Positions 1 through 39,735 of a DNA stretch of 39,735 bases are shown here, piece after piece. Under the pieces are notes generated by a model. It searched no databases. It was not told the DNA's origin and saw only the letters and a list, made by a program, of their open reading frames with translations. Source of the DNA: Escherichia phage AV103. Made by a program: the position numbers and the translations under genes. The stretch's first letter is position 1; each line of letters begins with the position of its first letter. The stretch lies in the sequence record OR352934.1; one strand, given 5' to 3'.

Positions 1-1761
1 TCACCACTCAATGAAAGACGTACCGTAACCCTCATCGTCCTCAGAGTATACATCAACTCCTCCTACAGACATCTCAATGATGTGCGCGGCAGACACTGTA
101 GGACGCATCATGTGCTCCTCAAGGAAGTCAGCAAGCACTTCACCTTCGACCTTAATGGAATCCAACTGCATGGACTCACGGAGATACTCAATGCCTAACG
201 CAAGGGCATCCAATCGGTCATCGTGTGCCAGAGCGCCTTTATCACGGGTGATACGGGTCATCTGGTAGAACAGTGAATACTTAATGTCATGCTTACCGTC
301 TACGTCACGAGCGGACTGATAGTCGGCCCTAATGACCTCATCACGAATGACAAGGCGATGAGTCTGCATGACTGGCTCAAGGGTATCACAAATACGCACC
401 TCCTTCATACCGCGAGCACGAATCTCTTCCATTGCACAGTTGTGGTGTTTAAGAAGGATAGGGCTGAATACCTTACCGAACATACCATCACCGAAGTTAC
501 TCTCATAGACAACCGTCTGGACTCCCCATTGCTTCGCTTTCTTAGCGAGCAACTCAAGGGTCTTATCGGAGTAGCCATCACGGAAACCTCCAGCTTCCAT
601 AAGGTAGATATAACCGTTCAGGGTGTACAGTACAACATAACCTGTTTCGTCCTTACCGCGACCACTAGGGTCAATGACCAGAATCTTCTGTTGATACTGT
701 CCTGAGTTGTTGGAACAATCATGGTACGTATGAAGGTCATCACCTTTAAGACCAACGTTAGGAAGGTCCTCAATGATGTTCTGACGGTTCGGAAGCCACT
801 GGTAATGCATTGGGGCCTTCTCTAAGTCTAAGGCCGCTACGATAGCGTCACGGAGCCTCAGAGGGTACTTCTCGGCATCACTCAGGTTCGGGTTAAGCAT
901 GAACTGTAGTGTGAAGCCAGCCTTACCGTATTCCAACTCACGCTCACGAAGGTCATCACGGTCAAAGCGCACAGGGTCTGTAGGAGTCCCAGCTAGTGCC
1001 TCAGGGTTCTCATCGTACTCAGCACGCAGCATAGGAGCAAGTCGCTGTGCGTAATAGAGGTTCTCTTCACGAGTCCTTGGGTACAGAGCAGGCCAGATGA
1101 TAGTGGTGTACCCACGGTTATCTTCCAGTTCCTTATAGAGAGTCATCTCAGTTTGAGGTGTACCAAGGTAGATAACACGAGAAGTGGGCAATGGCTTAAG
1201 TAACGCAGCGAACTCCTGAACGAGAGTCCACAGCTTCTCACGGGCACCCATAGTCGCACTGTTAGACGGAATCTCAACGTCATCCGCAATGATAATGTCA
1301 GCACGGCTACCAGTTAACTGACCAGTGATACCTACTGATTTAACACTAGGAGAGTGGTCAGGTTTAGCTGGACCGACATCAAAGCTGATTACAGAATCAC
1401 GCTGTCCGGGTCTTGGCTTTAACTCAGCTAGGAACGGTAGAAGGTCAATGATGTTCTTAATGAAGATGGAGTTAGCGTCTGCACGTTCCTTAGAGGCTGA
1501 TACGATAAGTATCTTCAACTGAGGGTCTCTCCATAAGGACCACACAACGAACGCACATGTGATGAACGACTTACCGATACCACGGAAAGCCTGTAGGATA
1601 AACTTCTTGTTTTCTCCATTCGCCAGCACCTTAGCCATGTCAATCTGACACTTAGTGGGCACCGGAAGGTTTAACGCCTTCCATAAGACGAACAGGAACG
1701 CCACGAAGTCTCCTTTCAGTTGCGCCACTACGAGCGCATTACGATTGGCTTGAGTAGACAC
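1..1761 (-). CDS. 19: Terminase large subunit (DNA maturation protein B), 586 aa
   Basis: Full-length [22 protein letters not shown]...; length identical to T7 gp19; follows genes 18/18.5 as in T7. Confidence 0.95.
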
Positions 1762-2267: not shown

Positions 2268-2313
2268 GACATCCATAAAGACCACTATATGTAGTGGCCT
2301 TGAGTATATCACT
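2268..2313 (-). promoter_or_regulatory. RNase III processing hairpin (R18.5-like)
   Basis: ATCCATAAAGACCACTATATGTAGTGGCCTTGAG inverted repeat, member of the recurring ATAAAGGCCAC...GACCTTGAG family. Confidence 0.5.
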
Positions 2314-2578
2314 GTAAAGTGTAAATATCGTCATCCGTAAGACCGTTATCACCAACTTTCTCTTTGTACTCTTCAAGAGCACCAGCAAGGCCACCCAAGA
2401 TGTGAACATCCGGCTGCAACTTACCAATCTGGAACTTGTGACGGTCTAACAGTTTGTTAATGGCGTTATAGAGTTGTGGGGAACGACGCTCAGGGTCTGA
2501 AAGGTCCGCAAGCATACGCTGAGCCATCGCAGTGTCCAGCATCTCTAAGAATGTAATAAGGCTCTTATCCTTTTCCAT
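2309..2578 (-). CDS. 18: Terminase small subunit (DNA maturation protein A), 89 aa
   Basis: 89-aa ORF MEKDKSLITFLEMLDTAMAQRM..., same length and position as T7 gp18. Confidence 0.9.
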   Translation of the reverse strand: MEKDKSLITFLEMLDTAMAQRMLADLSDPERRSPQLYNAINKLLDRHKFQIGKLQPDVHILGGLAGALEEYKEKVGDNGLTDDDIYTLQ

Positions 2579-2785: not shown

Positions 2786-3225
2786 GTGTCCTCCTTATAA
2801 GAGTCCTTCCGTGGACTACACGTCTTTCCTTGATATGATTATTCCAGACCCTTCAACTCAGCCATGAGTTTCAGTAAGTCCTGCTCAATGTCCTTCTTAG
2901 TTCGCTTTTTGGTTTCCTCTGGTGCGTGGAATTTCTTACCGTCCCATGTACACCCTCTCCAGTTACCAGAGAACTCGAAGGAATCAGTCACAATAATGGT
3001 TCCTCCTTCTACTGGTACGTACATACCAGACACAGGCCCGTCGGTAGCCCACATAACGTCGCCGTTAGGTCCAATTCCAACCACCCATGTTTCTTGGCGC
3101 TCATCTAGTTCTTCCATCAAGGTGTACCAATCAACGTTATTGTGGTCACGAATCTCATAGATTGGTTTTCCAAAATAAAACCCTTCGGTCCACTTCCAGT
3201 TAGTAAATACTCTCATTGTCCCTCC

Positions 3226-4887
3226 TTATTGTGACGCAATGATTCTTTTTGTGCCATTATGGAAACCAAGCCATACTGGTCTTAAAAAGATACCAGCAAC
3301 ACCCCCATTACTAACGGTTGTACCTGTTTGAACATGTCCAGATGGCGCTATAATGTCGTGATAACCTCCACCGTATCGGTTCCACACTTGAGGACCTAGA
3401 TAGACATCCCCTATGAAATATCTTCGTATCCAATCATCTAGGTATCCGGAATCATACGCAATACCCCAAACTCTACCATTAGGGTCAAAAGAGCCATTCC
3501 GTACAACCACACGTCCACCATCGGCCCAAATCTCCCCAGGGACGTGGAAGTCTCCATTGGTATTGAACGACCAAAGTTTATCACCTGCCCCTTCGTCTTT
3601 CATATGTATGTGGAATGACGGATGCGCTCCATTCAGCAATGTACCGATAGACCAGCATCCTGCCCACCGTCCAGATTGGTAAGTTCGTTGCTTTATTATT
3701 GGGTGATATGAGCTTGTAGATTGTACACGAATCTGTTGGAAGAAAGGAGCTTTAGTGTTGTACTGGTCAGCGAAAGCGTGAGCTATGCGATCATCAGCAT
3801 CTGACTCTAACACACCGCCAGCTATTGTTAACTGATTAAGTCTAATCTGGTGACGATGTTGCTCAGTCTTGTCCGCTGCATACTCTATGAACCCTATACC
3901 GTCCGGTCGGTCAATAGCGAGGTCAGACTTAAGGAAGTCGCCTTCTTCCCAAAGACCCATACGGAACCTAAATGCGTGGTTAGTTTGGAGTCCGTATACG
4001 GGACCCCCAACCCAATAGCCCCCTCCTCTCCAGAATACAGTATCACCCTGAACGCTATCTACAGCACCAGCAAAAGCATTCATGTTGCCAAGTTTGTCTG
4101 CTTCCTGCTTCGCTCGGTCTGCTTGCTGTTTTGAAGAAGCCGCAGAATCCGCTGAGGCCGTAGCTGAGTTCCCAGCGTTTACCTCAGATTGGCGTGCAGC
4201 GGTAGCGGAGTTACCAGCAGACGTAGCGTATTGACCAGCGGTGTTCTTGAACTGTTCAGCCTCATTACGGAACCCATAAGCCTCATCACGCCACTGCTTC
4301 GTGTTAGCAGCATTAGTGCCAGACTCGGTCTTAAAGCCATCCGCTTGATTTCTGAAAGTCTCAGCCTCATTACGGAACTGCAGGGCCTCGTTACGCGCCT
4401 GCCATGAGCTTTGGTTCATGGTCTTAAGTTGACCAAGCGGAACAGCGTCACGGTCATCAACGGCGTTCGCTAGGTTCACGATACGACGACCACGGGCATC
4501 CAAGTGACCATCATTGTTGACACCAATAGTATCCGCAGTTAAGTCACGGGCTTCTTCCGCTACATGCATAGTCTGAATCTGAGCCACGTTAAGGTCGTAA
4601 GCACGCAGGATTGAACCATCCGTAAAGTCAACAAGACGGTCAGTCGTGGAGGTTACTCGGCGTAGCTCAATAGTAGTGTAACCATCCGCAGGTCCCCAAG
4701 ATTTGGTTAGCGAGATAGTAGTGCGCGTAGCAAAGCGATAATCTGTATTAAGTGTGAGTACCTTACGGTCAACACCAATGAGAGTTACCACTACGAACTT
4801 ACGGGCTAGATATTCAAACGGGATGTTAAAATCACGATTTGAACCATCTAACGGGTAAGTCAAAACGGTCTTAATTACGTTAGCCAT
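3226..4887 (-). CDS. 17: Tail fibre protein, 553 aa
   Basis: 553-aa ORF MANVIKTVLTYPLDGSNRDFNIPFEYLARKFVVVTLIGVDRKVL...; length equals T7 gp17; preceded by a T7-type promoter. Confidence 0.95.
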   Translation of the reverse strand: MANVIKTVLTYPLDGSNRDFNIPFEYLARKFVVVTLIGVDRKVLTLNTDYRFATRTTISLTKSWGPADGYTTIELRRVTSTTDRLVDFTDGSILRAYDLNVAQIQTMHVAEEARDLTADTIGVNNDGHLDARGRRIVNLANAVDDRDAVPLGQLKTMNQSSWQARNEALQFRNEAETFRNQADGFKTESGTNAANTKQWRDEAYGFRNEAEQFKNTAGQYATSAGNSATAARQSEVNAGNSATASADSAASSKQQADRAKQEADKLGNMNAFAGAVDSVQGDTVFWRGGGYWVGGPVYGLQTNHAFRFRMGLWEEGDFLKSDLAIDRPDGIGFIEYAADKTEQHRHQIRLNQLTIAGGVLESDADDRIAHAFADQYNTKAPFFQQIRVQSTSSYHPIIKQRTYQSGRWAGCWSIGTLLNGAHPSFHIHMKDEGAGDKLWSFNTNGDFHVPGEIWADGGRVVVRNGSFDPNGRVWGIAYDSGYLDDWIRRYFIGDVYLGPQVWNRYGGGYHDIIAPSGHVQTGTTVSNGGVAGIFLRPVWLGFHNGTKRIIASQ

Positions 4888-22307: not shown

Positions 22308-22463
22308 TCAGTGACATACGGCCCAGTTAGGACCCATCTTACCTTCGGTATCCAGAAGACACCGGAAGTTCCAGTGGTCTCCAACCCAGCGCATTGCTTC
22401 TTGTGCGGTCTCAATGACCACCTTAGCAATCTCTTCGGTACGGCAACCCACTTGAATCTCATC
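22308..22463 (-). CDS. 5: DNA polymerase exon 2 (C-terminal 51 aa)
   Basis: Frame translates DEIQVGCRTEEIAKVVIETAQEAMRWVGDHWNFRCLLDTEGKMGPNWAVCH*, the conserved polymerase C-terminus; continues exon 1 after the intron. Confidence 0.85.
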   Translation of the reverse strand, partial: DEIQVGCRTEEIAKVVIETAQEAMRWVGDHWNFRCLLDTEGKMGPNWAVCH

Positions 22464-23063
22464 CTTTCTGTATTCTCCTATTACTAGGAGTGTCGGACTA
22501 TATCATCAGCCTTTGAGTTGACTGTCTGGCGCTTCGGGTAACGAGGGAATCTCACCCTCGGCCCTACTCCTTTCGGATAGTCTCTACGCCTTCCACTCTC
22601 TAATCCACTTACAAGCGGCAGAGAACGTTACACCAAACTTCTCACCTAAGTGTGTCCCTGTACATCCAGTCTCAAACCAGTATTCCTTCGCGGACTCTTT
22701 ACGGTCAGCGTAGCGTTCCATGTTTGTCTTGACTGTATGCTCAGAACCTTCTAGTAACTGGAGGTGCTCTACGTTACAGCACGCCCTGTTCCTACACTTG
22801 TGGTCTACTTCATACCCTTCTGGTATATCCCCGTAGTGTTCCTTCCAGACTGTCCTGTGATACATTTCTAGTACACCGTTCGTCTTCTTTCGGAAATAAC
22901 CATCAGCATTAAGTTTGTGTGACGTAGGGATGATACAACCACTCTCTGTGGTCGCAAGGATTAACTTCTTGCCTCTCATATATCCTCCCTATGGCTTGGC
23001 TCGGTATTGCCCAGAAGGGTTTCACCGAGTTCACCAGATTTAATGTGCACAATGAGATAGTTT
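22464..23063 (-). mobile_element. Intervening sequence in the DNA polymerase gene, probable group I intron carrying an HNH endonuclease ORF (600 bp)
   Basis: Polymerase frame stops 7 codons after ...FAYMAWVH and resumes 600 nt downstream; exon 1 ends in U, intron ends in G; internal ORF has its own SD; about 200 nt of non-coding flank. Confidence 0.8.
22584..22979 (-). CDS. Intron-encoded HNH homing endonuclease, 131 aa
   Basis: HNH motif EVDHKCRNRACCNVEHLQL; SD GGGAGGATAT-ATG; lies wholly inside the interruption of gene 5. Confidence 0.85.
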   Translation of the reverse strand: MRGKKLILATTESGCIIPTSHKLNADGYFRKKTNGVLEMYHRTVWKEHYGDIPEGYEVDHKCRNRACCNVEHLQLLEGSEHTVKTNMERYADRKESAKEYWFETGCTGTHLGEKFGVTFSAACKWIREWKA

Positions 23064-25022
23064 ATGCACCCATGCCATGTACGCAAAGTCCCCATCCCAG
23101 CCATGCTTCAAGCCTTTCTCTACGAGCATCTCTTCGGTCTTGATAATCCACAGTTTGCAGATGAGAGCACCCGCAGATTGCAGTAGTGTATTCAAGGCAG
23201 CGTGAGGACTACGAACGTGTACCTTACGACCATCCAGACCTTTAATCCAGCGGCGTTTCCACTTGACTTGTTGCTCACCAGCTACCCATTGAGAGGACTC
23301 GACAAGTGTCTGTTGGATAGACTCACGGAGTGCTGCAATCGCTGGTGTGTTCTCAAGGAATTTCTTCTTGAGTTCCTTACCGCGTTCTTTACCAGCACCT
23401 ACAATCTGTCCAATCTTCTCATCACCAGCGCCATAAAGGAACCCATAGATGAACGTCTTGGCGTTATCACGGGTAGGCAGTTCGGCAGCTAGTTGGTTCT
23501 TAGTGTGGATGTCACCATGAAGAATCTCTCTAGCGTACTCACCGTTATCAAAGCGAGCCATGAAGTGGGCCAAACAGCGCAACTCAAGGCCGGATGCGTC
23601 GATACCTGCCTGAACCCAAGGCTTACCAGTTATCCCATCCAAATGGTGCTCAGCGCCAAAAGCAGCGCGACACTGCTCTCCATAAGGAGAACGTACACCC
23701 GGAATTTGTGCAAGGTTGGGGAACGCATGGGTCGCACGACCCGTAACTGCTCCATTAGGGTTAACAGAACCATGAATCTTACCATCCTCAGCAACGTAAC
23801 GAAGCCATGCCTTGTCTCCCTCAGCGGACTGTCCGATTCGCTTCTGAATCATCAAGTACTCTTTAATGAGGTCGATAGCGGCTTGCTTCTCAGGGTCATC
23901 TACACGCACTCCTTCGAGTACCTCATCGTCCACCACAGGAGCACCATTATCGGTGTACTTGGTCGGGACCCATCCAGCCTCTTGGAGTTTCTTCTGAATG
24001 TGGTCACGAGACGAAGGGTTAAACACAACGTGCTCAACTGGAGTATAAGGAGCACCAGCAACATACTCGCGGGTGTCCAGTTCGCAAGGCTCACGGCCTT
24101 CTCGCTGTGCCTTGTTCTTAGGCTTCTTAAAGATACCACCTACTTTAGGTATCTTAATGCGAGGGTATTTAGGCAGTGGCTTACCTGTCCGTGGATGGCA
24201 GAACATTTCGGTGCCACCTTTAGGCTGATACCACGAGCCGAACGTTTCGGTCAATTTACGGAGCAACTCAGAGCGTCTAGCAGCTAACTCTACGTACAAC
24301 TCTTCGATTGCTTTCGTGTCAAACGGGAACCCATTGCGCTCTTGCTTAGCGAGTAGCCATGCAGCACGATGCTCAATGTCAACGGCCTCAAGGGATTCTG
24401 ACCAGAACGTAGTGTATCCTACGTCCGTAAAGTCAATCTCAGGAGGGAAGTAATGTTTGTCAGAGAGTAGCTTCTCAAGGAGAGTTTTAGTGACCACAAC
24501 GTCCTGAACGTTATAGGCCATCATCTCTTCGTTGAAGTTCCACCACTCCATCCCGTCAACGTATTCTTCACCCTGCTCTTCAAGCATACGCTTAAAGTCG
24601 TCCTTGTATTCACCTTTCATCTCGCCTAAGCGATAGCCCCACGCCTCCAGAGCGTGAGACCCAAAGCGTTTCCCAGGCAACTTACCGGAACGCAGAAGAC
24701 CCATATCGGTGTCCTTGAGGTTAGAGTGAATCAAGCGTGACAGCACAAGTGTGTCAATACAGTTCTCACGAGGAATGTGGAACTCTCGGTTCAACTGCAA
24801 CTTAGCCAGCTTGGTTAACGCAGGGATGTCAAATTTAGTGAAGTTATGTCCTACGATGAGTCCTCCCTTTGCTACCTCAGCTTCTAATGCGTCAAGGTAT
24901 TTATTAAAGTCCACAGGGCGATACTTGTTGTATTCTCCAGTACTGTAGTCATAGATAACCGCGCAATGGAATTTAGTAGTGGTCTCAAGTAGACCGTTTG
25001 ATTCGATGTCTGAGACAATCAT
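23064..25022 (-). CDS. 5: DNA polymerase exon 1 (N-terminal 653 aa)
   Basis: [27 protein letters not shown]... 3'-5' exo and pol motifs; exon 1 + exon 2 = 704 aa, the T7 gp5 length. Confidence 0.9.
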
Positions 25023-32976: not shown

Positions 32977-35628
32977 TTACGCGAACGCGAAGTCTGACTT
33001 AAGGATGTCTTGGAGATTCAAGTTACCTTTAGCCGGAAGTGCTGGCATTTTGTCCAATTGAGACTCATGCAACTGGTCAGCGAACTGGTCGTAGAAGTCA
33101 GCCAGTACATCACAAGACTCATAGGTGTCAACCATAGTTTCGCGCACAGCTTTGAACAGGTTGGCAGCGTCAGCAGGAATGGTCCCGAAGGAGTCGTGAA
33201 TCAATGCAAACGATTCGATTCCGTACTTCTCATGTGCCCACACTACAGTCTTACGCAGATGACTACCATCTTGGCTATGTACAAAGTTAGGAGCTATGCC
33301 GGACTCCTGCTTGTGCGCATCAATCTCGCTATCCTTGTTTGTGTTAATGGTTGGCTGTAGACGGAACTGACCGAGGAAAATCAGGTTCAAGCGAGTCTGA
33401 ATTGGCTTCTTGTATTCCTGCCACACAGGGAAGCCATCAGGAGTTACCCAGTGTACAGCGCAACGCTTGCGTAGAATCTCTCCAGTCTTCTTATCTTTGA
33501 CCTCAGCAGCCAGCAGCTTAGCAGCGGATTTAAGCCAGTTCATTGCTTCAACCGCAGCCACCACCGTGACACTCACAGCTTCCCAAATCAGTTTAGCCAT
33601 ATAACCAGCAGCCTGATTAGGTTGAGTGAACATCAGACCTTTACCGGAATCAATAGCTGGCTGAATGGTATCTTCCAGCACTTGTTGACGGAAGCCGAAC
33701 TCTTTGGACCCGTAAGCCAGCGTCATGACTGAACGCTTAGTCACGCTGCGAGTAACACCGTAAGCCAGCCATTGACCAGCCAGCGCCTTAGTGCCCAGTT
33801 TGACTTTCTCAGAGATTTCACCAGTGTTCTCATCGGTCACGGTAACTACTTCGTTGTCGGTCCCGTTGATTATGTCTTCTTGCAGAATCGCATTGACTTT
33901 CTTAGCAACAATCCCATAGATGTCCTGAACGGTTTCACTAGGCAGCAGGTTAACCGCACGACCACCTACCTCATCGCGGAGCATCGCAGAGAAGTGCTGA
34001 ATGCCGGAGCAAGACCCATCGAACGCCAGTGGAAGAGAGCAGTTGTAGCTAAGACCATGGTGCTGTACCCCAGCGTACTCAAAGCAGAACGCAAGGAAGC
34101 AGAACGGAGAATCTTGCTCAGCCCACCAAGTGTTCTCCAGTGGAGACTTAGCGCAAGCCATGATGTTATCGTGGTTGTCCTCAATGAACTTGATGCGCTC
34201 AGGGAACGGAACCTTATCGACACCCGCACAGTTTGCACCGTGGATTTTCAACCAGTAGTAACCTTCCTTGCCGATTGGTTTACCTTTAGCCAGCGTCAGC
34301 AGTCCTTTGGTCATATCGTTACCTTGCGGGTTGAACATTGACACAGCGTAAACACGACCGCGCCAGTCCATGTTGTAAGGGAACCAGATGGCCTTATGGT
34401 TAGCGAACTTATTGGCTTGCTCAAGCATGAACTCTAAGCTGATACGGCGAGACTTGCGAGCCTTATCCTTGCGGTACACAGCAGCAGCAGCACGTTTCCA
34501 TGCGGTGAGAGCCTCAGGATTCGTGTCGATGTCTTCCGGTTTCATCGGGAGTTCTTCACGTTCAATCGCTGGGATGTCCTCGACAGGGCAGTGCTTCCAC
34601 TTGGTGATTACGTTGGCGACCGCTAGGACTTTCTTGTTGATTTTCCATGCGGTGTTTTGCGCAATGTTAATCGCCTTGTACACCTCAGGCATGTAAACGT
34701 CTTCGTAGCGCATCAGTGCTTTCTTGCTGTGAGTACGTACCAGTGCCAGAGGACGGCGACCGTTAGCCCAATATCCACCACCAGTAATACCAGTCCACGG
34801 CTTAGGAGGAACTACGCAAGGCTGGAACATCGGAGAGATACCAGCCAGTGCACCAGCACGAGTAGCGATAGCCTCAGCGTATTCCGGTGTGAGTTCGATA
34901 GTCTCAGAGTCTTGCCCGACTACGCCAGCGTTTTGACGATGTAAGCTAACCATTCCGGTTGACTCAATGAGCATCTCAATGCAGCGCACACCTACGTGAA
35001 TGGAGTCTTCCTTGTGCCACGAAGACCACGCCTCGCCACCCAGTAGACCCTTAGAGAGCATGTCAGCTTCGACAACCTGCATGAATGCTTTCTTGTAGAC
35101 GTGCCCTACGCGCTTGTTAAGCTGTTCCTCAACGTTTTTCTTGAAGTGCTTAGCTTCAAGGTCACGGATTCGACCAAAGCGCGCCTCGTCCTCAATAGCT
35201 CGACCAATTGCACTTGCTACAGCCTGAACGGTTGTATTGTCTGCGCTAGTGAGGCAAGCCAGAGTTGTCTTAATGGTGATGTACGCTATCGCTTCCGGCT
35301 TGATTTCTTGCAGGAACTGGAAGGCTGTCGGGCGTTTGCCGCGCTTAGCTTTCACTTCCTCAAACCAATCGTTGATGCGTGCAATCATCTTAGGGAGCAG
35401 GGTAGTAATGAGAGGCTTGGCGGCAGCGTTATCCGCAACCTCACCAGCTTTAAGTTGACGCTCAAACATCTTGCGGAAGCGTGCTTCACCCATCTCGTAA
35501 GACTCATGCTCAAGGGCCAACTGCTCGCGAGCTAAACGCTCACCGTAATGGTCAGCCAGAGTGTTGAACGGGATAGCAGCCAGTTCGATATCAGAGAAGT
35601 CGTTCTTAGCGATGTTAATCGTGTTCAT
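32977..35628 (-). CDS. 1: T7-type single-subunit DNA-directed RNA polymerase, 883 aa
   Basis: 883-aa ORF MNTINIAKNDFSDIELAAIPFNTLADHYGERLAREQLALEHESYEMGEARFRKMFERQLKAGEVADNAA...; matches the promoter specificity of all 17 promoters. Confidence 0.97.
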   Translation of the reverse strand: MNTINIAKNDFSDIELAAIPFNTLADHYGERLAREQLALEHESYEMGEARFRKMFERQLKAGEVADNAAAKPLITTLLPKMIARINDWFEEVKAKRGKRPTAFQFLQEIKPEAIAYITIKTTLACLTSADNTTVQAVASAIGRAIEDEARFGRIRDLEAKHFKKNVEEQLNKRVGHVYKKAFMQVVEADMLSKGLLGGEAWSSWHKEDSIHVGVRCIEMLIESTGMVSLHRQNAGVVGQDSETIELTPEYAEAIATRAGALAGISPMFQPCVVPPKPWTGITGGGYWANGRRPLALVRTHSKKALMRYEDVYMPEVYKAINIAQNTAWKINKKVLAVANVITKWKHCPVEDIPAIEREELPMKPEDIDTNPEALTAWKRAAAAVYRKDKARKSRRISLEFMLEQANKFANHKAIWFPYNMDWRGRVYAVSMFNPQGNDMTKGLLTLAKGKPIGKEGYYWLKIHGANCAGVDKVPFPERIKFIEDNHDNIMACAKSPLENTWWAEQDSPFCFLAFCFEYAGVQHHGLSYNCSLPLAFDGSCSGIQHFSAMLRDEVGGRAVNLLPSETVQDIYGIVAKKVNAILQEDIINGTDNEVVTVTDENTGEISEKVKLGTKALAGQWLAYGVTRSVTKRSVMTLAYGSKEFGFRQQVLEDTIQPAIDSGKGLMFTQPNQAAGYMAKLIWEAVSVTVVAAVEAMNWLKSAAKLLAAEVKDKKTGEILRKRCAVHWVTPDGFPVWQEYKKPIQTRLNLIFLGQFRLQPTINTNKDSEIDAHKQESGIAPNFVHSQDGSHLRKTVVWAHEKYGIESFALIHDSFGTIPADAANLFKAVRETMVDTYESCDVLADFYDQFADQLHESQLDKMPALPAKGNLNLQDILKSDFAFA

Positions 35629-35639
35629 TTAGTGCCTCT

Positions 35640-35700
35640 TCCGGTTAGTAAATCGTATCTATTCAGGCCACCCTCAGTCAGATGACCTGTAAGATAAGAC
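35640..35700 (-). promoter_or_regulatory. Possible RNase III site (R1-like) in the 0.7 to gene 1 spacer
   Basis: Imperfect inverted repeat CAGGTCATCTGACTGAGGGTGGCCTG; weak. Confidence 0.3.
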
Positions 35701-35702
35701 TA

Positions 35703-36782
35703 TCAGCCCATTAATCTTGCGTCAAGTTGCTTGTCGATGTTGAGCGGAAGACCGTTAGCGATAGCCGTGCGGTCAGCTTGGACCCAGTGCGCCGCTACTC
35801 GTTCCTCAAGCGCCTTAAAGTCCTTAGCGAGCATGTTGACCCAGAGCATAGCGTTATCGGTCCTTCCTAGTACATCTACAGCTCTCTCATGGTTACGTCG
35901 TTCTTGACGTTCAGCCATTCGCCACGCAGCAACCATTCGCTTGTGCTTCGCTTGGTGTGCTTTACGTGCCTTACGGTTATGGCGCTTTACTTTGCGTGCC
36001 TCCAATCGACCCACATGACGTGCTTTTCGTTCCTTAGCGCGGTCGATTTCTTTCTGTCGTGCGACTTCCTCGACTTCCTTGATGAGTTCCTCTGGGTCAA
36101 TACTGAATGCGCCACCGTCTTTCTTCTGCGAGAATGACACGGGGTCGGTAATGAATGGTGTATCATCGTCGCTGAACATGATGTTCCCGCTGTGCATGTC
36201 GAACGAAGCGATGCCCTCAAAGAACTTGCGGATTAGCTTGCAAGTTTCGACGAACTCGCCATCCCATCCAGTCAACCCATCATGCTCATCTGATTTGTAG
36301 TCAATGATGTCACTTGCAATCTCAGCGTATTTATAATGCTCATCGTTATCGTAACGGTCGCAATCGTTCAGTGCATCAAGTACCACCGTATAGCATCCAG
36401 CGTGACGCTGTACATCGTAGACGTTAGGGATACCAGCGCGACCTTGATACATGCGGCAGAATGCGGTATACGCAGCGCCTGAGTCCTCTTTCTTAAAGCC
36501 CACCTTAATCACCCTGTTAGGCAGCAGCGGGTGGCTATAAGCAGCCGAGAAGTGACCATTACCGAGCATCTTAAACCCCGCGTCAGTCGTGAGACACTTC
36601 AAGGTAGTCCACCAGTCTTGAAACTCAAGTGCCTGATTCAGTTCGGTTAGCTCTCCATCGCGTGTTTCGCTGTTGACCATCTCGACCAGTAAGTCGATAA
36701 GCATCCCTTGACGCTTGTCAAGTTCACAGATTGGAAGTGCTTTGATTGCGTCGATAGCGTTCATGATGTCGATAGCGTTCAC
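35703..36782 (-). CDS. 0.7: Serine/threonine protein kinase / host shut-off protein, about 359 aa
   Basis: Kinase-like N-terminal half and basic C-terminal half; start inferred at GTG 36782 with SD GGAG; alternative ATG at 36764. Confidence 0.85.
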
Positions 36783-36801
36783 TTTGTGTATTCTCCAAAA
36801 G

Positions 36802-36939
36802 TTAGATGTTGTTGAGCTTGCGGTTGATTCGCAGTTCACGCTTAAGGCGTTCGATTCGCTGTTTCATTGCGAACCCATCAGGTGTGCATACAGTTGCCCC
36901 GTTGGGCGTGTGTATAGGCATAACGTAGTGTTTCAGCAT
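36802..36939 (-). CDS. Gene 0.6-like small protein, 45 aa
   Basis: [45 protein letters not shown]; ATG overlaps the preceding ORF stop (ATGCTGA). Confidence 0.5.
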
Positions 36940-37061
36940 TTGCGCATTGCTCCCGTGACGGTGCAAGCCACCAAGTAAGCGCCTACAGCTACACCCAAAG
37001 ACTTCCCAAAGGATGCGCCTACAGCTAGACCTAGAGCGGTGAGTAGTCCGATAGTAAGCAT
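36933..37061 (-). CDS. Gene 0.5-like small hydrophobic membrane protein, about 42 aa
   Basis: [42 protein letters not shown] with SD GGAG; downstream of an RNase III hairpin. Confidence 0.45.
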   Translation of the reverse strand: MLTIGLLTALGLAVGASFGKSLGVAVGAYLVACTVTGAMRKC

Positions 37062-37087
37062 ATGCATTACTCCAATTCAAGTAAAGT

Positions 37088-37135
37088 GATAATCATAAAG
37101 GCCACTCGCTAGGAGCGACCTTGAGCCTATCACTT
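37088..37135 (-). promoter_or_regulatory. RNase III hairpin (R0.5-like)
   Basis: AATCATAAAGGCCACTCGCTAGGAGCGACCTTGAG. Confidence 0.55.
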
Positions 37136-37267
37136 GCTACCGTACATCGCTTTGCGTGCTCGATATGTCTGTGCTAATTGTGCCATGCAGTACCCGAAAG
37201 AAGCACCATAAGCCATCGCTACGCGGTACGTCTGCATCATCTCTTTTGTTAGACCATATTTGACCAT
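37130..37267 (-). CDS. Gene 0.4-like small protein, 45 aa
   Basis: MVKYGLTKEMMQTYRVAMAYGASFGYCMAQLAQTYRARKAMYGSK; ATG 2 nt after the ocr stop with SD GGAGGA. Confidence 0.5.
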   Translation of the reverse strand: MVKYGLTKEMMQTYRVAMAYGASFGYCMAQLAQTYRARKAMYGSK

Positions 37268-37269
37268 GA

Positions 37270-37647
37270 TTATAAATCCTCCTCCCCCTCTTCGCAGTCT
37301 CCCTCTTCCTCTTCCTCTGCGACTTCCTCAAGGTACTCGTTCAGCAAGTCCTCAGCAACTTCCCAGAGGTCAATCGTGAGTTGCTCATAGATGCGAGCTT
37401 GCAGGATGCGAATTGTGTCCGTGGTGTCTGGCATCAGACCGGCATCCTCGAACGCACGATAGATACCGTCGCTTGCCATTACGCTAAAGACCTCAGAGTA
37501 GTGACGCGGAACTACACTATCGGCAGCCTCATGAACAGCATACGATAGATAATCAGGGTCACGGATAGCATCATGATGGATGATTTCTTTCAGTATTGCA
37601 TAAGCGCGGTCGAAAACGTTGCTGTAAGTCATGTTAGACATAGCCAT
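37270..37647 (-). CDS. 0.3: Ocr, DNA-mimic inhibitor of type I restriction-modification, 125 aa
   Basis: [16 protein letters not shown]...[40 protein letters not shown] plus polyacidic tail. Confidence 0.9.
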
Positions 37648-37679
37648 CTTGTGTTACCTCATGGTGTTATTAATCAATG

Positions 37680-37726
37680 CTAATCATAAAGGCCACGCAT
37701 CGTGCATGACCTTGAGTTTAACACTT
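37680..37726 (-). promoter_or_regulatory. RNase III hairpin upstream of ocr
   Basis: ATCATAAAGGCCACGCATCGTGCATGACCTTGAG; near-duplicate of the hairpin upstream of the SAMase gene. Confidence 0.55.
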
Positions 37727-38183
37727 ATTGCACTTGCCAGCGGCGACCGAACTCATCAATCGTGAAGCAGCCTTGCAGCGGTGCGCCTTTAGGCACTTCT
37801 TGGAAACTACCTTGCAGACGTTCGGCCTTATACCCATCGATACCTTTAGCGTACACCAGACCAGCCGTGTGAGTCTGTGATTTGTATACCAGTACGCAGT
37901 CTTGCTCCCACTCATTGCAAGCTAAGCGAGCGACCTGTAAGACCTGTTCTTTGTCCTTGCAGCGTACACGAACCGTCTTTTCCTCAGTCGGTGCACTTGC
38001 GATTGCCTCACGATAGCATCCGGTCAAATCGGTTGACTCAACGGAGCCATAAAGACCCGGTGCGGCACGTAAGGTGCTAACCATGTGGCGGTGTCTGCTC
38101 ATATTCACCTCATCGTCGAGGTTGGAACGGAAAGCTGACACCAGTACATAGAAGACGTTAGCAGGCTCTTTAGTGAAAATCAT
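37725..38183 (-). CDS. S-adenosyl-L-methionine hydrolase/lyase (T3-type SAMase), 152 aa
   Basis: 152-aa ORF MIFTKEPANVFYVLVSAFRSNLDDEVNMSRHRHMVSTLRAAPGLYGS... as I recall for the T3 SAMase; SD GAGGT. Confidence 0.8.
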   Translation of the reverse strand: MIFTKEPANVFYVLVSAFRSNLDDEVNMSRHRHMVSTLRAAPGLYGSVESTDLTGCYREAIASAPTEEKTVRVRCKDKEQVLQVARLACNEWEQDCVLVYKSQTHTAGLVYAKGIDGYKAERLQGSFQEVPKGAPLQGCFTIDEFGRRWQVQ

Positions 38184-38214
38184 TTGGTGTTACCTCATGT
38201 TGGTTCGTTAAGTG

Positions 38215-38262
38215 AATATCATAAAGGCCACGCTTTAAGTGCGACCTTGAGTTATTCGCTTA
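38215..38262 (-). promoter_or_regulatory. RNase III hairpin (R0.3-like) upstream of the first early gene
   Basis: ATCATAAAGGCCACGCTTTAAGTGCGACCTTGAG. Confidence 0.55.
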
Positions 38263-38369
38263 TACGGCACACTCAAGAGCTATTTACCAGATTGTTAAAG
38301 AGCGTCTTTGGTCAGGTTTCGTTAGACCGCATCACCTTTCAGTGTGGTGACTCACTGTTCCGTCATTTC

Positions 38370-38405
38370 GTGGTACATCGTACCGTGTTTACTTCATGTT
38401 GTCAA
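38370..38405 (-). promoter_or_regulatory. Host sigma70 early promoter A3
   Basis: Sense strand TTGACA (38400-38405 rc) - 17 bp - TACGAT (38377-38382 rc). Confidence 0.85.
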
Positions 38406-38479
38406 CCGTTTTGTTTCACCTTATGTGCCGTGGTGCGCTTAAGTCACCTAGAAGACACCGTGCATCCGGTTGACGCTAC

Positions 38480-38516
38480 GTTGTGTATCTTACTGCATGT
38501 TACTTCATGTTGTCAA
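38480..38516 (-). promoter_or_regulatory. Host sigma70 early promoter A2
   Basis: Sense strand AAACAGGCATTGACAACATGAAGTAACATGCAGTAAGAT: TTGACA - 18 bp - TAAGAT. Confidence 0.85.
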
Positions 38517-38609
38517 TGCCTGTTTTTCGTATGACTTATCAGGCTGTCTACTTATCCGGTTGACCCCGGTATCTCAGGGAGTGGCTTTAAGGCCGTTGTC
38601 CCGTTGACG

Positions 38610-38644
38610 AGATGAATAGTAACCCTTAAGACTCTTTAAGTCAA
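38610..38644 (-). promoter_or_regulatory. Host sigma70 early promoter A1
   Basis: Sense strand AAAAAGAGTATTGACTTAAAGAGTCTTAAGGGTTACTAT: TTGACT - 17 bp - TACTAT. Confidence 0.8.
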
Positions 38645-38694
38645 TACTCTTTTTTTAAATTCTTTAATTTCTCTTTTAAGGTATCTTTAAGTAG

Positions 38695-38717
38695 TCTCCT
38701 TATAGTGAGTCGTATTA
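38695..38717 (-). promoter_or_regulatory. T7 RNAP promoter (phiOL, left-end replication promoter)
   Basis: Reverse complement TAATACGACTCACTATAAGGAGAC between the repeat array and A1. Confidence 0.8.
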
Positions 38718-38930
38718 AAGACGATGGATGAAGATTATCTCTTTATAGGTAACAACAAGGCGTCTATAGGATAGGCTTTAGGATGGTCTTTAGGCTGGTC
38801 TTTAGAAGATACTTTAAGATGGGGATTGACTCATGGTGTCTTTAGGTGTAGTCTTTAGGTTGTAGACGGTAGGAATGACTTTAGGAGGTGACTTTAGGAG
38901 GATACTTTAGGAGGCTGTAACAGATAGGGA
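38718..38930. repeat. Left-end array of degenerate CCTAAAG-type heptamer repeats
   Basis: Plus strand shows about 10 copies of CTTTAGG / CTTTAAG / CTTTAGA at irregular 10-25 bp spacing. Confidence 0.75.
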
Positions 38931-39090
38931 CACAGAGAGACACTCAAGGTAACACTCAAAGGTAAACCATCGGGTCATCCCAACCTTAAGTAACCCTCAA
39001 GGTCAACCTTCGGTTGACTTTAGGTGATTGGCTGGGCTTTAGGGACCCCCCCCCCCCTATGGGGGAACTTTGGGTCCGTACACTGTGAGA
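38931..39090. repeat. Direct terminal repeat (single collapsed copy); physical genome end at about 39090
   Basis: Reverse complement begins TCTCACAGTGTACGGACCCAAAGTTCCCCCATAGGGG...CCTAAAGCCCAGCCAATCACCTAAAGTCAACC, matching the T7 left terminus; 160-bp extent assumed by analogy. Confidence 0.6.
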
Positions 39091-39270
39091 TAGTCACTCA
39101 GATTTTTATGGTATATTTTAAAGGACCCTCTAGGAACTCCCTAGGACCTCTCTAAGACCCTCTTTAGGTGACACTGATAGGATGGCCTATCTTTAGGTAT
39201 AGACCTTAGGATAGACCATTAGAGGCTCTTTATGGGTATACCTTAGGACTTGACTCTATAGGGATGAAGT
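39091..39270. repeat. Right-end array of CCTAAAG / CCTAGG-type short repeats
   Basis: CTTTAGG, CCTTAGG and CCTAGG motifs recur between gene 19.5 and the terminal repeat junction. Confidence 0.6.
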
Positions 39271-39329
39271 GGTGTGATGCAATCATACCGCTGAATCCCT
39301 CGGTGAGCCATCAGTCGGTCAGGAAGACC

Positions 39330-39479
39330 CTAATCGCTACAAGTGAGTATAGAGCAAACGGTAGACTCCAGTGAACCGAGGTCTCCAGTAAGCGATGCGT
39401 ACCCAAGGGCAGCACAAAGTACCATAAGAAAGCGGTAGGTGACTCTATGCCGCAATAGGTTCAACAATAAGCGGAACAT
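39330..39479 (-). CDS. 19.5: Gene 19.5 small protein, 49 aa
   Basis: SD GGGAGGAGACTA-ATG; MFRLLLNLLRHRVTYRFLMVLCAALGYASLTGDLGSLESTVCSILTCSD. Confidence 0.7.
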   Translation of the reverse strand: MFRLLLNLLRHRVTYRFLMVLCAALGYASLTGDLGSLESTVCSILTCSD

Positions 39480-39633
39480 TAGTCTCCTCCCTTTATGTTG
39501 GTCTTTAAGTTAAGGTGATATTAATACAATATAATCACCATTCTTAGAGGTCACTTTAGGTACACTACTATGCATACTTTATGCACTCTATAAGTATTCA
39601 TTCAGTATCTATATAGTAACCTTTCGTCCCTCC

Positions 39634-39656
39634 TCTCCCTATAGTGAGTCGTATTG
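39634..39656 (-). promoter_or_regulatory. T7 RNAP promoter (phiOR, right-end promoter)
   Basis: Reverse complement CAATACGACTCACTATAGGGAGAGGA between gene 19 and gene 19.5. Confidence 0.85.
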
Positions 39657-39735
39657 ATTTCTCTTTATATTCAATAACTTAAAAATCGACCTTCCGTGGT
39701 CTCTAATGAATCCCTATGCAATCCTAGTGCATAAA

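Follow-up and report, generated by a model that had tools for sequence, protein, structure and literature searches.

The genome record of Escherichia phage AV103 (OR352934.1), which we analysed over its full length of 39,735 nucleotides (the window), holds a T7-like left terminus in its interior, and this raises the question of how the record relates to the DNA that is packaged in the virion. The window is very probably the complete genome, written as a rotated, reverse-complemented, unit-length circle in which the terminal repeat appears once; the virion DNA would be linear with a length of approximately 39,900 bp. AV103 has a Teseptimavirus genome, the 39,735 bp of the window comparing with 39,777 bp for T7 minus one repeat, and its overall nucleotide identity is approximately 93% to T7, N30 and 13a. 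Using a 25-kb query, the best database identities were approximately 93-95% over 90-96% of the query (N30, UFV01, SYGE1, 13a, T7), and AV103 itself is probably absent from the August 2025 phage collection that was searched. The threshold for species demarcation is 95% identity, and by these comparisons AV103 may fall below it.

The T7 RNA polymerase promoter occurs in 13 copies, every one on the minus strand, which identifies the window as the reverse complement of the phage sense. When this reverse complement is rotated to start at 39090, it is collinear with T7 from 1 to 39937, the gaps being confined to the tail-fibre C-terminus and to genes that are variable or accessory, and both T7 repeats fall on one block. 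The proposal of an earlier note on this DNA, that the record is a complete, permuted genome with a collapsed terminal repeat, is thus borne out, as is its statement that a single repeat copy is present: a second copy is absent from the window, and a comparison of the first with the last 300 nt found no 12-mer in common. The two ends of the window also join seamlessly. T7 36297-39777 aligns as one HSP across the join between 39735 and 1 with no gap; the join itself (...TTGAGTGGTGA/TTTATGCA...) is in register with T7 39130/39131 and matches T7 39101-39130/39131-39160 with no indel. Beyond the join, T7 36401-39130 aligns to the window from 2728 down to 1, and within it gene 19 (T7 37370-39130) finishes at base 1. 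The 586-aa gp19 shares 573 of its 586 residues with T7 gp19 (574 of 587 alignment columns including the stop).

We then located the ends of the virion DNA relative to those of T7. The reverse complement of 39076-39090 is, as the earlier note had recognized, the exact T7 left-end 15-mer TCTCACAGTGTACGG, which occurs once in the window; the expectation for chance exact 15-mer matches is 2 x 39735 / 4^15, or approximately 7e-5, and allowing up to two mismatches to TCTCACAGTGTACGG, shuffled sequences gave a mean of 0.19. The 15-mer belongs to a long homology in which T7 1-927 aligns to the window from 39090 down to 38181. The sequence beyond 39090 (39091-39735) had been described as right-end sequence, and indeed T7 39131-39937 aligns to the window from 39735 down to 38926, with gene 19.5 and phiOR in this part. 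Exact repeats are present at both record ends in T7 (160 nt), NC-A (158 nt) and 13a (170 nt). In all three the repeat starts with TCTCACAGTGTACGG and ends with GTCCCT, the right copy is preceded by AAATCTGAGTGACTA and the left copy is followed by ATCTGTTACAG. The window has all four boundary sequences, and on this basis the repeat was placed at 38926-39090. The interval proposed before, 38931-39090, has the correct outer edge, but its inner edge is off by 5 nt because the 160 nt of T7 had been counted back, whereas the window has a run of 12 G residues (G12) instead of G5 as well as two 1-nt deletions. Likewise, of the physical ends formerly put at 39090/39091, the left one holds by homology with T7 and the right one moves to 38926/38925. 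The virion DNA would accordingly start at 39090, proceed downward through 1/39735 and end at 38926, presumably with the repeat at both ends as in T7, NC-A and 13a, giving a predicted length of 39,735 + 165 = 39,900 bp. The repeat is 86.8% identical to that of T7 and only approximately 87% identical to any repeat in the database, and its exact length, 165 versus about 158 nt, is uncertain, given that the G12 run is unique to AV103.

Features of the AV103 window around the predicted virion ends, in phage-sense order
Feature	Coordinates	Strand	Remarks
Gene 18, terminase small subunit	2309..2578	-	88/89 residues as in T7 gp18 (89/90 columns including stop)
Gene 19, terminase large subunit (terL)	1..1761	-	Stop codon at window 1-3
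Spacer (79 nt) directly downstream of gene 19 stop	39657..39735	-	81.5% identical to T7; 39735 joins base 1
phiOR-type T7 RNA polymerase promoter CAATACGACTCACTATAGGGAGA	39634..39656	-	Homologous to T7 phiOR at 39229
Gene 19.5 (49 aa)	39330..39479	-	ORF; 46/49 residues as in T7 gp19.5
Right-end unique non-coding flank, 239 nt	39091..39329	-	Adjoins repeat; 98.7% identical to T7 39539-39777
Direct terminal repeat, single copy, 165 nt	38926..39090	-	T7 1-160 and 39778-39937 both map here
Left-end 15-mer TCTCACAGTGTACGG	39076-39090	-	Exact match, unique in window
C12 homopolymer (G12 in phage sense)	39046-39057	+	Longest run in window; next longest 7
Hairpin GTCAACC-GAA-GGTTGAC inside repeat	39002..39018	-	Loop is the complement of T7's TTC
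Right terminus ...GTGTCCCT	38926-38945	-	Conserved, then ATCTGTT
ATCTGTT, class II T7 RNA polymerase pause/termination signal, CJ	38919..38925	-	Directly abuts repeat
Left-end CCTAAAG-type heptamer array, between repeat and phiOL	38718..38918	-	78% identical to T7 161-387
phiOL-type promoter TAATACGACTCACTATAAGGAGA	38695..38717	-	Homologous to T7 phiOL at 405

In phage sense, 38700-39735 runs from phiOR and gene 19.5 through the right-end flank and a single repeat to the CJ pause site, followed by the left heptamer array and by phiOL, and at the level of sequence this region as written matches the concatemer junction that forms when T7 DNA replicates. The right-end flank is the best-conserved non-coding segment of the region and contains CCTAAAG-type heptamers; the 34 nt next to the repeat (39091-39124) are identical in all seven relatives that span the block, among eight that were aligned. 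Its conservation exceeds that of the repeat interior and of the left array, which would fit selection on recognition and cut-site sequences, and the flank is likely to provide the context for packaging recognition and cutting. We take pacB to lie in this flank. The heptamer CCTAAAG is present in 18 copies in the window versus 4.4 expected genome-wide, with 12 of the 18 located within 38776-39197. On the opposite side of the repeat, ATCTGTT has one copy on the phage-sense strand of the whole window, situated at the repeat edge. The site is kept in T7, NC-A, 13a, N30, Bas103, KKE5P and ESh1, and the record of Yersinia phage Y labels this position CJ. Class II pause/termination signals of T7 RNA polymerase have ATCTGTT as their core, and the T7 concatemer junction contains one such signal (bioRxiv 10.1101/2021.01.11.426313; bioRxiv 10.64898/2026.02.12.705533). 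An inverted-repeat scan of 38880-39140 returned the GTCAACC hairpin alone and none spanning either cut site. The loop of this hairpin is GAA in N30 and NC-A, as in AV103, and TTC in T7 and ESh1, a difference that has the appearance of an inverted palindrome centre.

On the model of T7 and T3, replication of AV103 would give rise to head-to-tail concatemers with one repeat per junction, at which the gp18/gp19 terminase would recognize the pac signal while T7-type RNA polymerase would pause at ATCTGTT. Cuts would then be made at both edges of the repeat, and the repeat would be duplicated by synthesis to leave two copies per packaged genome. In the T7 system, Pac consists of PacB, to which gp18 binds, and PacC, which gp19 cuts, DNA translocation being the task of gp19 on the prohead (PMC9860248); synthesis at staggered nicks restores the repeat and gives each virion two copies (PMC5557969). 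Plasmids with a T7 origin and the concatemer junction get packaged, according to the citation of Chung and Hinkle 1990 in PMC13236587. In terminal-repeat phages, of which T7 is the standard example, assemblers merge both repeats and choose an arbitrary first base, and for the collapsed T7 repeat an approximately two-fold read coverage is expected together with pile-ups of read starts at its edges (PMC5557969). In the same way, an assembler would have overlapped the two virion ends of AV103 through the repeat and output one copy, over which a doubling of coverage would be predicted, and the record would have been opened at the terL gene boundary after this collapse.

The single repeat copy and the position of the ends could also have been explained in other ways. 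The T7 concatemer junction has exactly one repeat between right and left unique sequences, as does the window, so the source of the single copy might be concatemeric, replicative DNA that was read directly, or a long read that crossed a junction. Phage genomes are, however, normally sequenced from purified virions and collapse by the assembler is a documented routine (PMC5557969), and we therefore regard this origin as improbable; sequence alone cannot tell it apart from collapse, and which of the two applies makes no difference to the biology. There is an even slimmer chance that AV103 has fixed ends that are shifted relative to T7, with different repeat boundaries. The length of the repeat does vary in relatives (158, 160 and 170 nt for exact repeats, 146-170 nt between anchors in records with an internal junction), but all of this variation is internal, and the boundary sequences are the same in the window and in every relative with two exact copies. 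Finally, AV103 might use headful packaging, which would leave circularly permuted ends and no fixed termini, the match to the T7 end being a relic. The sole point for this explanation is a record without terminal duplication. The terminase subunits are 98% (gp19) and 99% (gp18) identical to those of T7; conservation is exact to the base at the two edges of the repeat, in the 34-nt flank and at the CJ pause site; and the 98.7% identity to T7 of the 239-nt right flank points to purifying selection on the junction signals. Headful packaging was rejected on account of the near-identical terminase and the conserved junction edges, and we assign it a negligible probability. A T7-type genome with fixed ends, deposited with its repeat collapsed, hence remains by far the preferred reading.

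The length of the repeat is a separate matter and depends on the G12 run, which lies 33-44 nt from the left end and extends one arm of a conserved CCCCCATAGGGGG palindrome. At this site the run is G4-G5 in the eight aligned relatives, and the AV103 query exceeds the aligned stretch by 6-8 nt in the best 12 of 190 phage records that matched. It is quite conceivable, if somewhat short of an even chance, that AV103 has T7-like termini with a shorter true repeat (approximately 158-160 nt) and that G12 is a sequencing or assembly error: the run sets AV103 apart from the eight aligned relatives and is also lacking in those best 12 of the 190 records, it is the sole homopolymer longer than 7 in the genome, and it lies close to the end, in a region of double coverage, where assemblies are at their least dependable. 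Several points speak against an error: outside the run the repeat gives a clean alignment, slippage is biologically plausible in the arm of a G/C palindrome, and platform errors usually alter homopolymers by 1-2 bases and not by 7. We consider it an evenly balanced proposition that G12 is genuine, in which case a slippage-prone homopolymer would have expanded the CCCCCATAGGGGG arm within a repeat of 165 nt. If true, a T7-like phage would possibly have, in the region where its ends are processed, a cis element of variable length.

The window starts exactly at the stop codon of gene 19, in agreement with the earlier note, since bases 1-3 (TCA) are the complement of TGA and T7 gene 19 ends at 39130. 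The same note had called the opening point arbitrary, which we reject, as the break coincides to the base with the gene 19 (terL) boundary. According to a published convention, phage records begin at the terminase gene (PMC5923482). The opening at terL fits this convention and indicates a deliberate or scripted rotation; a script that rotates to the lowest coordinate of the gene and ignores its strand would yield exactly this layout.

Comparison with known systems places this layout among familiar ones. T7 (NC_001604) has the same order of gene 19 stop, phiOR, gene 19.5, repeat, CJ, heptamers and phiOL, and the distance from the gene 19 stop to the repeat is 645 nt in AV103 and 647 nt in T7. 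The repeats differ (165 versus 160 nt) by the G12 run, the flipped hairpin loop and small indels. The record of 13a (EU734174), in which a terminal repeat and a 'concatemeric junction' are annotated, has the same repeat edges, flank and ATCTGTT as AV103. In contrast to the single 165-nt copy of AV103, its 170-nt repeat is found at both record ends, and it has an extra gene 19.4 after gene 19; gene 5 of both phages has a putative group I intron that carries an HNH gene and is 98% identical between them. In the phage collection, the repeat was matched at 283 places in 166 records, which implies that roughly a third of the records are single-copy. T7 itself has also been deposited as 39,778-bp single-repeat records, one of them (OZ035731) rotated with the repeat at 3255-3414; GU071091, LR745710 and LC730325 are likewise single-repeat or rotated records of T7. 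The closest relatives at the junction are Bas103, KKE5P, ESh1, C2, Bas104 and ESh3, in all of which the junction is internal to the record, with Bas103 deposited as circular, and the record of Yersinia phage Y states 'TR present only at 3' end'. The other single-repeat or rotated records (the four of T7, Bas103, KKE5P, ESh1 and Y) have other opening points, and the combination of the terL stop and the reverse strand is found only in AV103.

We also searched for further sequences of AV103. An exact-pattern scan with a 38-nt stretch of its repeat gave no match in IMG/VR, JGI metagenome contigs or GTDB genome contigs. A scan of IMG/VR with CCCCCATAGGGGGGGGG returned 13 contigs, which were dismissed as unrelated because none has the T7 end sequence. 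Exact-product look-ups of gp19 (with M start) and gp19.5 retrieved no encoding contig, and these scans and look-ups thus yielded no independent assembly of AV103 with which to compare the rotation or real contig ends.

A rotated, single-repeat record is an already known property of T7-like genomes and their assemblies, and we regard it as an ordinary outcome of assembly and of record-keeping, with no new biology. It does mean that the record falls one repeat short of the predicted virion DNA (39,735 versus about 39,900 bp) and that, through the reverse complement and the opening in the late region, gene 19 and its downstream elements lie at opposite ends of the file. Re-linearizing at 39090 and adding a second repeat would restore standard T7 coordinates, which matter when genomes are annotated by comparison, rebooted or synthesized and when packaging-signal plasmids are designed.

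Several other features of the genome were observed along the alignment with T7. Gene 5 (DNA polymerase) carries a 600-bp insertion at 22463-23064 relative to T7 16311/16312. No match was obtained anywhere in the window at Rfam gathering thresholds; below them, Intron_gpI gave a full-length match at 22474-23073 on the minus strand (36.1 bits against a gathering score of 50, E = 2e-7). The insertion contains an HNH-type ORF of 131 aa (22584-22979, minus strand) and is 98% identical in 13a, Bas103, Bas104 and others. It resembles an intron of group I, with a homing endonuclease, reported for the DNA polymerase genes that T7-like phages carry. In the early region, an ORF of 152 aa with no nucleotide match in T7 (37725-38183, minus strand) has the early-promoter region on one side and the gene 0.3 homologue on the other. 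A 45-nt repeat (ATAATCATAAAGGCCAC…GACCTTGAG) is present in three copies, at 37081, 37672 and 38207, flanking early genes; these copies may be processing sites of the RNase III type. In the late region, 2833-4055 is the counterpart of T7 35456-36296, which comprises the C-terminal part of the tail fibre gene 17 and sequence downstream, but has no nucleotide match to T7. This divergence suggests that the receptor-binding domain differs from that of T7, and the host range possibly too.
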